Shown in pieces: positions 37,580 to 40,360 of a stretch of DNA of 40,988 nt. Numbering within the stretch: position 1 is the first letter of the stretch; the number at the start of each line of letters is the position of its first letter. A model generated the notes under the pieces. That model had not been told where the DNA came from, searched no databases, and was given only the letters and a program-made list of their open reading frames with translations. The position numbers were made by a program, and so were the translations under genes. The stretch is from Escherichia phage PhiR49_2, in the sequence record PV340570.1; one strand, 5' to 3'.

Positions 37580-39643
37580 ATGACAGTAAAAATTTCTGGC
37601 GTGCTTAAAGATGGCACAGGAAAACCAGTACAGAACTGCACCATTGTGCTGAAGGCCAGACGGACCAGCAGCACGGTGGTGGTGAACACGGTGGCCTCTG
37701 AAAATCCGGATGAAGCCGGGCGTTACAGCATGGATGTTGAGTATGGCCAGTACAGCGTCACCCTGCTGGTTGAAGGTTTTCCGCCTTCACATGCCGGGAC
37801 CATTACCGTCTATGAAGGTTCCAGACCAGGTACGCTGAATGATTTTCTCGGTGCCATGACGGAGGATGATGTTCGTCCGGAGGCACTGCGCCGTTTTGAG
37901 CTGATGGTGAATGAAGTGGCACGTCATGCCGGAGCATCATCACAGAGCGCAGCGGCAGCAAAGAAATCCGAAACTGCAGCGGCATCATCGAAGAACGCGG
38001 CGAAAACCTCAGAAACGAATGCAGCTAACAGCGCACAGGCGGCAGCGGCCTCGCAGACTGCATCGGCAAACTCCGCGACAGCAGCCAAAAAATCAGAAAC
38101 CAGCGCGAAAAATAGCGAGACAGCCACAAAGGCCAGCGAAAAAAACGCAAAATCCAGCCAGACGGCAGCGAAAACCAGTGAGACGAATGCCAAAGACAGT
38201 GAAGCCAACGCAAAGGTGAGCGAAACAGCGGCGGCGAACTCGGCGAAAGCATCGGCAGCAAGCCAGACGGCAGCAAAAGCAAGTGAAGATGCTGCCAGAG
38301 AATACGCAAACCAGACAGCAGAGCCGTACAGATATGTTTTACAGCCGCTGCCGGATGTGTGGATACCCTTTAATGATTCGCTGGATATGATTACGGGCTA
38401 TTCTCCGGGTTATAAAAAAGTGAAGATTGGCGATAATGTGGTTCAGGTTGCCAGTGATAAACAGGTTAATTTCAGTCGCGCATCAACGGCAACATATATC
38501 AACAAATCTGGCGAACTGAAAACGGCGGAAATTAATGAGCCGCGATTTGAGTGTGATGGCCTGCTTATTGAGGGACAAAGAACGAACTTCTTCCAGAACA
38601 GTACAGACCCTTCGAAGTGGAATAAGTCAACTTCACTGGACGTTACAGAAACAGGCACAGATAGTTTCGGGTTTAATTATGGTCGGTTTGTCGTACAGGA
38701 TTCGATTGTTGGTACAAGTAAAGCGCATACCATTATCGGACTGTATTCGAGTACCGGAGGGGTTGATACTTCAGGGGACGAAAAGCATGTAACTATATCC
38801 TGTCGGGTAAAAAGTGAAGTTGATAATATCGCCGTTCGTATTTTATTTGAACATTATGATGGGGAGGTAAGGACATCAATAGGAGCAGCAAACCTGAACC
38901 TTACCACCCGCATAATTAGCAAGACAGGTCAGACAAGCCGTGTTACAGCAAGGTCTGTTAAGGATGATGCAACTGGCTGGATATTTTTTGAGGCTACATT
39001 AAAAGCAGATACAACAGAAAATACGGTTGGTGGTTTTGTCCAGTATTCTCCGGATACAGGGCAGATGGTTACATCAGGGGATTATCTCGATGTAACCACT
39101 CCACAGATTGAGGCTGGTACAGGCGCATCATCTTTTATTGTTACGGGGACGGCACCGGCAACGCGGGCAAGCGATATGGTGACAGTCCCAATCAAGAATA
39201 ACCTTTATAATCTTCCTTTTACGGTTCTTTGTGAGGTACATAAGAACTGGTATAAAACGCCAAATGTAGCGCCGCGTGTTTTTGATACCGGCGGTCATCA
39301 AACCGGAGCGGGGATCGTAATGGGGTTTGGTTCATCAGGTGGGTACGACGGTTTTCCGTATTGCGATATAGGTGGTTCAGACCGACGAATAAATGAAAAT
39401 GCCGGGCTGGAAAAAATGCTTATTGGTATGCGGGTAAAGTCCGAACGGTCCACATGTGTAGTCAGTAACGGTAAGTTAAGCAGCGAAACTAAAACCAAAT
39501 GGGAATATATCCGGAGTACAGCAACCATTCGCATTGGTGGACAAACTACAGCAGGATTACGCCATTTATTTGGGCATGTGAGGAATTTTCGTCTCTGGCA
39601 TAAAGAGCTAACAGATGCGCAGCTTGGGGAGGTTGTGGAGTGA
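37580..39643 (+). CDS. stf: Side tail fibre protein (Stf-like) with lambda-like N-terminus and divergent C-terminal region
   Basis: 687 aa; N-terminus MTVKISGVLKDGTGKPVQNCTIVLKARR… matches lambda Stf from memory; central repetitive Ser/Ala/Thr/Lys region (about 37960-38290); C-terminal ~400 aa appear more AT-rich by eye. Confidence 0.8.
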   Translation: MTVKISGVLKDGTGKPVQNCTIVLKARRTSSTVVVNTVASENPDEAGRYSMDVEYGQYSVTLLVEGFPPSHAGTITVYEGSRPGTLNDFLGAMTEDDVRPEALRRFELMVNEVARHAGASSQSAAAAKKSETAAASSKNAAKTSETNAANSAQAAAASQTASANSATAAKKSETSAKNSETATKASEKNAKSSQTAAKTSETNAKDSEANAKVSETAAANSAKASAASQTAAKASEDAAREYANQTAEPYRYVLQPLPDVWIPFNDSLDMITGYSPGYKKVKIGDNVVQVASDKQVNFSRASTATYINKSGELKTAEINEPRFECDGLLIEGQRTNFFQNSTDPSKWNKSTSLDVTETGTDSFGFNYGRFVVQDSIVGTSKAHTIIGLYSSTGGVDTSGDEKHVTISCRVKSEVDNIAVRILFEHYDGEVRTSIGAANLNLTTRIISKTGQTSRVTARSVKDDATGWIFFEATLKADTTENTVGGFVQYSPDTGQMVTSGDYLDVTTPQIEAGTGASSFIVTGTAPATRASDMVTVPIKNNLYNLPFTVLCEVHKNWYKTPNVAPRVFDTGGHQTGAGIVMGFGSSGGYDGFPYCDIGGSDRRINENAGLEKMLIGMRVKSERSTCVVSNGKLSSETKTKWEYIRSTATIRIGGQTTAGLRHLFGHVRNFRLWHKELTDAQLGEVVE

Positions 39644-39918
39644 GAGATTTCACGTTGCGTTTCAGTGATAAAGCAGATTTCAGGGCATTTCTCAGGAAAC
39701 TTAACTGGGAAGAGGACGAAGAGCTGCAGAATGCCGTTCTGGTTGATGAGATTGGTTTTACGTTCAGTGAGTCAGGTGTTTCTGCTGACGGGGAGCCTGA
39801 ATACACGCGAAACGAAGGGTACTTTGTTAATATCCGTCTTCTTGACGATGGATTTGATGATTCCGTGTTCCGTGAGTGGGTGGTTACACCAGAGCGCCCG
39901 CTCAGGGAGTGGTTTTAA
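39640..39918 (+). CDS. Hypothetical acidic protein coupled to stf
   Basis: 92-aa ORF; GTG start overlapping the stf stop (GTGA); occupies the position where a tail fibre assembly gene is expected but does not look like Tfa. Confidence 0.4.
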   Translation: MRDFTLRFSDKADFRAFLRKLNWEEDEELQNAVLVDEIGFTFSESGVSADGEPEYTRNEGYFVNIRLLDDGFDDSVFREWVVTPERPLREWF

Positions 39919-39927
39919 GGATAGCAG

Positions 39928-40221
39928 ATGGATATCACGTCGATACTTCATGCGCTTTGTGCCGTGGCGGTGCAGGTACTGGCTGGTCTTTTTACCGGAA
40001 ACTGGGCTTACGGGGCGATAGCCGGTTGTACGTTCTTCATTGCTCGTGAACATACCCAGGCAGAATATCGCTGGATTGAAATGTTCGGGCATGGCAAGCG
40101 GATTAACATGCCGTGGTGGGGCGGTTTTGATCCGCGCGCGTGGGATGTGGCAAGCCTGATGGATTTTGCTGTGCCGGTGGTGGCGTGTCTGCTGGTCTGG
40201 CTGTTGGTTAATCGTGGGTGA
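39928..40221 (+). CDS. Hypothetical small membrane protein
   Basis: 97 aa; hydrophobic segments at the N-terminus (…ALCAVAVQVLAGLFTG…AIAGCTFFIA…) and C-terminus (…FAVPVVACLLVWLLV…). Confidence 0.45.
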   Translation: MDITSILHALCAVAVQVLAGLFTGNWAYGAIAGCTFFIAREHTQAEYRWIEMFGHGKRINMPWWGGFDPRAWDVASLMDFAVPVVACLLVWLLVNRG

Positions 40222-40231
40222 AAAAAGGTGA

Positions 40232-40360
40232 GCTGTATATGCAACGGAGGAAGAAACCTCATTGCTGGAAGCCTGGAAAAAGTATCGGGTGTTGCTGAAC
40301 CGTGTTGATACATCAACTGCACCTGATATTGAGTGGCCTACGAACCCTGTCAGGGAGTAA
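40232..40360 (+). pseudogene. 3' remnant of a tail fibre assembly (tfa) gene
   Basis: Open frame with no start codon encoding …[39 protein letters not shown], matching the conserved C-terminus of lambda-type Tfa proteins as I recall it; a stop lies directly upstream at 40229-40231. Confidence 0.5.

Follow-up and report, generated by a model that had tools for sequence, protein, structure and literature searches.

A probable alternative side-tail-fibre cassette bounded by a tfa scar in Escherichia phage PhiR49_2

Escherichia phage PhiR49_2 (PV340570.1) was analysed as one stretch of 40,988 nucleotides (nt), here called the window, and all coordinates without a locus name are window positions; compared loci carry L numbers. 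The final 8 kb of this stretch form the end of the late operon of a lambdoid prophage, where the side tail fibre gene stf is followed by two small open reading frames (ORFs), ORF92 and ORF97, by a 3' remnant of the tail fibre assembly gene tfa and by a DinI-like gene (Table 1). The same layout was annotated by PGAP in E. coli NMBU_W05E18, which has a 98.5% identical prophage copy adjoining yecD and aspS. The favoured reading overall is that the region is probably one complete, widespread alternative side-tail-fibre cassette, which replaces the lambda-type stf tip and tfa. An earlier note on this DNA had described an stf with a lambda-like N-terminus and a divergent, AT-richer C-terminal half, an acidic ORF of 92 amino acids (aa) coupled to the stf stop, a predicted membrane protein of 97 aa and the last ~40 codons of a tfa-like gene with no start; this observation was correct, and the interpretation given with it was partly supported, as detailed below.

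Table 1. Features of the stf region of PhiR49_2 (window positions)
Feature	Position	Strand	Remarks
J	33063-36761		
lom	36829-37428		
Terminator-like hairpin between lom and stf	37532-37561	+	13-bp stem, then T run; start of the stf transcription unit
stf	37580-39643	+	687 aa
stf N-terminal part (PF08400 and Ala/Ser-rich repeats)	37580-38190	+	Left homology arm
Variable stf tip	38280-39643	+	GTA head-spike-like fibre domain, then LamG-type C-terminal domain (assigned through homologues) ending ...LFGHVRNFRLWHKELTDAQLGEVVE
ORF92, acidic alpha/beta protein, putative cognate partner of the LamG fibre tip	39640-39918	+	92 aa, coupled to stf
ORF97, predicted three-helix membrane protein	39928-40221	+	97 aa; core AREHTQAEYRWI...MPWWGGFD
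Novel joint, ORF97 end to tfa remnant	40222-40240	+	Homology to intact tfa starts at 40241
tfa 3' remnant	40241-40360	+	Last ~40 codons, start codon absent
Flank 3' of tfa, right homology arm	40361-40414	+	100% identical to PhiR30_1
DinI-like gene	40476-40724	-	Prophage end beyond

The first 131 residues of Stf match the prophage tail fibre N-terminus (PF08400, E=2.2e-68), and the DNA of this left arm is common to the lambda-type, phage 21 and mEp460 fibres, with 82-86% identity over 37553-37924 or up to 38190 (blastn; PhiR30_1, HK629, phage 21 and mEp460). The 37553-37924 segment is shared by all the compared lambdoid fibres, and the Ala/Ser-rich repeats up to ~38190 by some of them only. With the lambda-type stf of PhiR30_1 and HK629, the DNA homology comprises 37553-37924 and 29 additional nt only, while protein homology to other fibres with the same tip type starts at about Stf residue 233; these are the two limits obtained from the stf alignment that the earlier note had proposed for locating the recombination junction. 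The GC content is 0.53-0.56 up to ~38300 and 0.43-0.48 across ~38350-39700, a drop that agrees with the AT-richer C-terminal half. From about residue 233/252, the tip is 46% identical to a 595-aa fibre of another E. coli lambdoid prophage (L076) and 30% to a Laminin_G_3 fibre of Atlantibacter. Stf residues 329-530 match the gene transfer agent (GTA)/phage head spike fibre family NF048003 (E=1e-18, 68.6 bits against a cutoff of 36), and the tip also matches the polysaccharide-binding fibre domain of the RcGTA head spike fibre Rcc01080 (PDB 6TB9, E=3.9e-4). Unlike the Stf of the window, Rcc01080 has too little sequence left for a LamG domain, the match spanning residues 45-286 of its 325. The Ala/Ser/Lys-rich repeats of stf (SETAA..SKNAAK motifs, 37900-38350) show an extreme AT skew of ~0.63, exactly where the alignability of the fibres ends, and crossovers that exchange tips may occur preferentially in this repeat region.

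At the other end of the cassette, the frame at 40232-40360 has an upstream in-frame stop (40229-40231) and no usable start. Its 42 aa match Caudo_TAP (PF02413) with E=1.3e-17 and 64.6 bits against a cutoff of 22.1, covering profile positions 95-130 of 131 only. The alignment to Tfa proteins, which the earlier note had suggested, found the expected similarity: the remnant is 100% identical in amino acids to the C-terminus of PhiR30_1 Tfa, 92% to that of HK629 and ~90% to that of lambda, and the scar is a genuine fragment of the Tfa/Caudo_TAP family. In NMBU_W05E18, it was labelled by PGAP as a pseudogene (tail fiber assembly protein, incomplete, missing N-terminus). A complete functional tfa ORF was not found at 40232-40360, where the start codon and the N-terminal ~150 residues are absent. 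The 174 nt of 40241-40414 are 100% identical to PhiR30_1 and comprise the last 120 nt of its intact 194-aa tfa and 54 nt of flank, with the homology starting at about codon 156 of 194. Because this identity begins at 40241, the right joint is placed at 40240/40241, 19 nt past the ORF97 stop.

This joint, together with the end of the lambda-type homology within the N-terminal third of stf, shows a receptor-binding module swap that left a tfa scar, as the earlier note had supposed. Recombination took place between the conserved N-terminal region of stf as the left arm (to ~38190-38280) and the tfa 3' end, replacing the lambda-type tip and the first ~155 tfa codons with an incoming piece made of the LamG-tipped fibre end, ORF92 and ORF97; the last ~40 tfa codons remained as a dead scar. 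The fibre modules of phages ev243 (L003) and PhiR30_1 are the two alternatives, and because the cargo downstream of them is identical, these phages constitute a natural before-and-after pair. Phage 21 and the window are 79% identical in ORF92, ORF97 and the initial 56 nt of the remnant; since the start of the scar is conserved at this level only, the joint between ORF97 and tfa is old and inherited, and not a recent accident in PhiR49_2. The same tfa scar is present in mEp460 straight after a different fibre of 1202 aa, followed by dinI. Apparently, the tfa 3' end was used more than once as a right homology arm for the exchange of fibre modules. The locus is thus ordinary lambdoid phage mosaicism, a known type of module swap with two uncharacterised accessory families, and can be taken as a textbook case of mosaic recombination.

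The identity of the window with L085 and ev243 stops at 40414, and the cargo beyond this position varies by phage, in a hot spot whose left border is the tfa scar. This cargo includes sitABCD in phage 21 (L002 4370-7819) and, in both ev243 (L003 5015-8853) and PhiR30_1, a ybcY-like methyltransferase, a second tfa fragment, a hydrolase and ompT.

The order of stf, a 279-nt gene and a 294-nt gene was found in phage 21 (CPT_21_22/23/24, OL657228), in ev243 (gp23/24/25) and in E. coli chromosomes including NMBU_W05E18, and both phages have the same spacing and stop/start coupling as the window. The Stf of the window has 59% identity with its phage 21 counterpart and 98% with that of ev243, and relative to phage 21, ORF92 is 64% and ORF97 93% identical. 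As a difference, phage 21 retains only 56 nt of the tfa remnant before the sit operon, and ev243 has methyltransferase and ompT cargo past the remnant, whereas the window proceeds straight to dinI and the prophage end. The trio of stf, ORF92 and ORF97 is present in hundreds of E. coli prophages. Among 5426 complete E. coli genomes, no fewer than 281 contain the allele of the whole region, judged by coverage of 80% or more of the query 39400-40500. The ORF92 allele was detected in 365 genomes of the E. coli genome survey, and ORF97 in 1906 of the 5426 complete genomes (35%), with a median of 2 copies per carrier and up to 7. The two genes therefore belong to a conserved, old cassette, and their earlier description as two unknown genes inserted behind stf was not upheld.

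Both proteins were assigned to PHROG families of unknown function, ORF92 to phrog_1361 (E=1.4e-39) and ORF97 to phrog_1443 (E=6e-58). Matches to Pfam, NCBIfam or PADLOC (no PADLOC family at E<=0.1) were found for neither of them, and the PDB sequence and profile searches gave nothing usable. The possibility that they are spurious ORFs was rejected on the basis of the PHROG matches, the hundreds of homologues, the confident AlphaFold2 (AF2) models and the ORF97 dN/dS of 0.2. The terminator-like hairpin has annotated terminators at equivalent positions in phage 21 and mEp460. From this hairpin through ORF97, neither a promoter (in a crude consensus scan) nor a further terminator was detected.

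ORF92 starts with a GTG within the tetranucleotide GTGA, overlapping the TGA stop of stf, and is acidic, with 22 D+E residues against 11 K+R. Its AF2 model is of alpha/beta type with three helices and is confident (pLDDT 92). A word-based search recovered 25 close clusters, and an exhaustive phmmer followed by a profile search extended the family to 164 protein clusters of 77-105 aa, in addition to a 121-123-aa subgroup and fragments, from Escherichia, Atlantibacter, Leclercia and metagenomic phages. In 14 of the 14 ORF92-family cases read, the upstream fibre ends in a LamG-type motif (...G(H)IRNxRIW/Y..L.D.QL...), and in most of the cases read the stop of the LamG fibre and the start of the ORF92 homologue overlap as ATGA or GTGA. 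Examples behind J are the lambdoid prophage L076, with the 595-aa fibre and an 88-aa homologue, and Leclercia L090, with a 552-aa Laminin_G_3 fibre and a 100-aa homologue. The Atlantibacter locus L079 has a 525-aa Laminin_G_3 protein and a 93-aa homologue in a Mu-like baseplate gene block of myovirus type, while L081, L087 and L089 have 941-aa or 432-aa proteins followed by homologues of 77-100 aa in head modules, beside terminase, portal or capsid genes. These pairs in head modules fit the match of the Stf tip to the GTA head spike fibre. The same arrangement is found in Comamonas (L020, L021, L027 and L033) with phrog_18574 relatives of ORF92, and in Chelativorans L029 an ORF97-like gene lies between the LamG fibre and the ORF92-like gene.

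The identities of fibre tip and ORF92 drop together between loci (55/64, 50/43, 45/28, 35/37 and 33/40%), and the synonymous sites of ORF92 are saturated relative to phage 21 (pS 0.90). Because of this co-divergence, the synteny and the translational coupling, ORF92 is regarded as the dedicated partner of the LamG tip type; these comparisons of sequence and gene order show a cognate relationship, with ORF92 presumably made in step with Stf through the stop/start coupling. In this respect, it is like the second gene of the lambda Stf/Tfa, Mu S/U and P2 H/G pairs (PF02413), that is, a small gene directly 3' of the fibre gene that varies and moves with the tip as a cassette. Unlike Tfa, it has no sequence or fold similarity to Tfa-type chaperones: no Pfam match to Caudo_TAP was obtained, and the fold comparison gave no match to a known chaperone. 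The structure check for a fibre chaperone proposed in the earlier note thus gave a confident alpha/beta model without a fold match to a known chaperone. Likewise, of the alternative raised there, a conventional and conserved tail fibre assembly gene next to a syntenic stf C-terminus, conservation and synteny in many phages were found, and the conventional Tfa identity was not. It is somewhat favoured, mainly from gene position and co-divergence, that ORF92 is a folding chaperone of the tip or a bound adaptor or cap subunit, doing a Tfa-like job without Tfa homology. In a phmmer search against a representative library, ORF92 gave multi-stretch matches to giant PKD-repeat proteins; a PKD-like domain was rejected and the matches considered compositional, as there is no Pfam PKD match and the confident alpha/beta model is not Ig-like all-beta.

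ORF97 begins 9 nt past ORF92, with a Shine-Dalgarno-like AAGGA upstream. In its AF2 model (pLDDT 90.8), residues 4-23, 26-53 and 74-96 form three long hydrophobic helices. The family comprises 571 protein clusters from Gamma-, Beta- and Alphaproteobacteria and Desulfovibrio, with 27 invariant columns that include the blocks AREHTQAEYRWI and MPWWGGFD; R40, E41, Q44, E46 and D68 are among the invariant residues. The history of this gene differs from that of its neighbour: it is 93-96% identical across phages in which ORF92 is 43-64% identical, its pS relative to phage 21 is 0.16 with a dN/dS of ~0.2, and a mosaic boundary was located by megablast at ~39918-39944. The receptor-binding proteins encoded 5' of ORF97 are unrelated to each other and include the pair of LamG fibre and ORF92, a beta-helix tailspike (Leclercia), a Peptidase_S74 tailspike (Desulfovibrio), DUF4376 proteins and a giant gpJ (Comamonas prophage); second S74 fibres in E. 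coli also precede it. Conversely, pairs of LamG fibre and ORF92 without ORF97 were found in L076, L079, L081, L087, L089 and L090, and therefore ORF97 is not generally required by the fibre. By these sequence and neighbourhood comparisons, ORF97 is shown to behave as an evolutionary unit separate from ORF92, and it is predicted to be a small protein of the inner membrane, under strong constraint, whose gene closes receptor-binding modules at their 3' end.

Homologues of ORF97 were also found as lone chromosomal genes, in Aeromonas after Pirin and near lipid A acyltransferases (L004 6001-6309 in Aeromonas rivipollensis; L010, L012 and L013) and in sphingomonads after the NAD-dependent DNA ligase ligA (e.g., L069), which hints that phages captured a cellular gene. 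Because its own promoter was not found and it lies 9 nt behind ORF92 in the late stf unit, late expression is preferred over expression in the lysogen, and ORF97 is probably transcribed late with stf. In the Comamonas testosteroni prophage L005 (1-5769), the order after a tail-tip gpJ homologue (2520 aa or more) is a 72-aa ORF, the ORF97 homologue and then three small ORFs; one of these matches only a PHROG family of unknown function, and the other two match no PHROG. A role as a holin or as part of a lysis cassette was rejected, since the genes that follow ORF97 in Comamonas have no lysis-family matches and the lysis genes of the nearly identical NMBU_W05E18 prophage are elsewhere; the chromosomal homologues and the high conservation also count against a holin.

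Genes for receptor masking or exclusion are known beside receptor-binding genes, as with llp of T5 beside pb5, cor of phi80 and N15, and gp15 of HK97. ORF97 is like them in being a small envelope protein at the end of a receptor-binding module, and unlike them in having no known sequence relationship to them, in being conserved to a far higher degree than the receptor-binding proteins beside it and in having chromosomal homologues. From its position and conservation, it is only tentatively suggested, at clearly less than even confidence, that ORF97 acts on the host envelope during infection, where it could block superinfection or the re-adsorption of progeny to surface-glycan receptors.

Several observations weigh against parts of the reading given here. 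PF13385 (Laminin_G_3) has no Pfam match at E<=1 in the Stf of the window itself, and the LamG assignment of the tip is transitive, through homologues that contain PF13385 and have 30-46% identity across residues 233-686, and through the C-terminal motif common to both. The role proposed for ORF97 is a guess from gene position, and the gene may just as well be cargo with a general role in the cell; its much higher conservation than that of the adjacent receptor-binding proteins and its chromosomal relatives in non-phage contexts are on that side. The promoter scan was a crude consensus test. In the case of ORF92, a docking adaptor instead of a chaperone could be considered because, in a four-gene variant of the cassette, a second S74 fibre lies between the ORF92-like gene and ORF97.

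This four-gene variant is common. It opens with a LamG-tipped stf and an ORF92-like gene; the third gene encodes a second, short fibre protein that has the Peptidase_S74 intramolecular chaperone, and ORF97 comes last. The variant is found in 2G7b (L091 1-3803), HannyBb (L092) and PhiR55_1 (L093 179-3798) and in L006 (1228-5291), and the Leclercia locus L090 (2343-5062) has the same order up to the S74 protein, without ORF97. The arrangement suggests a branched or extended side fibre, with the ORF92-like protein as a possible connector.

The cassette was weighed against the idea that ORF92 and ORF97 are independent moron cargo, for exclusion or lysogenic conversion, located between stf and a decaying tfa and unrelated to the fibre. 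The hot spot 3' of lambdoid fibre genes, with the sit genes of phage 21 and the ybcY and ompT cargo of ev243 and PhiR30_1, speaks for such an origin, as do the separate evolutionary history and the chromosomal homologues of ORF97. However, ORF92 overlaps the stf stop and co-diverges with the tip, and its family follows LamG-ended fibres in siphovirus, myovirus and head-fibre contexts, where the called genes showed neither a tfa scar nor a cargo region; neither gene had its own promoter in the scan, and neither matches PADLOC, so that independent cargo is considered unlikely. It is very doubtful that the two genes are a toxin/immunity or abortive-infection pair in which the soluble acidic protein neutralises the small membrane protein: the layout is the usual one of such pairs, but ORF92 and ORF97 differ in history and usually occur apart, and the absence of PADLOC matches for both also argues against it.

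The trio could instead be one functional unit, with ORF97 as a membrane-anchored helper for the maturation or export-independent assembly of glycan-binding fibres and tailspikes. The recurrence of LamG fibre, ORF92-like and ORF97-like genes in Beta- and Alphaproteobacteria and the position of ORF97 immediately 3' of the last receptor-binding gene in the three- and four-gene variants of E. coli and in Leclercia, Desulfovibrio, Comamonas and Chelativorans would be expected under this explanation, which is nevertheless rather improbable given the many pairs of LamG fibre and ORF92 that have no ORF97 (the six loci listed above). Furthermore, Peptidase_S74 tailspikes have a built-in chaperone for folding, Aeromonas and sphingomonads have the ORF97 gene in housekeeping neighbourhoods, and in mEp460, by annotation only, the tfa remnant follows the fibre gene with no ORF97 in between. 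The preferred reading thus remains a side-tail-fibre cassette in which ORF92 goes with the tip and ORF97 is a separate unit.

Two results seem worth keeping from this locus, the ORF92 family as an apparent unrecognised partner class and ORF97 as a widespread constrained membrane protein. Taken jointly, and with slightly less than even confidence, the ORF92 family may be a class of partners (chaperone, cap or adaptor) unrelated to Tfa that serves the LamG-tipped side fibres of siphoviruses, baseplate fibres of myoviruses and head fibres, and ORF97 may be a small bacterial membrane protein, repeatedly recruited by phages of Alpha-, Beta- and Gammaproteobacteria and Desulfovibrio to positions 3' of genes for glycan-binding receptor proteins, for the manipulation of a conserved envelope process. 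Side-tail-fibre swapping is the means of host-range change of lambdoid phages, and the same route is used for retargeting engineered lambda particles. If LamG tips need their own partner and not Tfa, the ORF92 gene must accompany the tip in engineering and in host-range prediction, and annotation pipelines could name a family now called hypothetical in thousands of genomes. ORF97 is among the most widespread uncharacterised genes of E. coli prophages, with a core that is invariant across proteobacterial classes, and its target could reveal how phages in general handle the host envelope late in infection. ORF92 and ORF97 are not mentioned in the phage 21 genome announcement, the Gifsy-1 Stf paper, the BASEL paper or the lambda-retargeting papers.

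Downstream of ORF97, a 48-aa ORF at 40333-40479, annotated as hypothetical by PGAP in related genomes (WP_001300215.1), abuts the dinI stop; it matches no family, lies partly over the tfa scar and is probably no gene. Just inside the prophage end, the heptamer TGGGGCA has four exact copies in 48 nt (40811-40858), and another copy is located at 78-84, at the very start of the window. The window-wide count of this heptamer (10) is not above chance, but its clustering is striking, and these copies may correspond to integrase arm-type sites of attR and attL.

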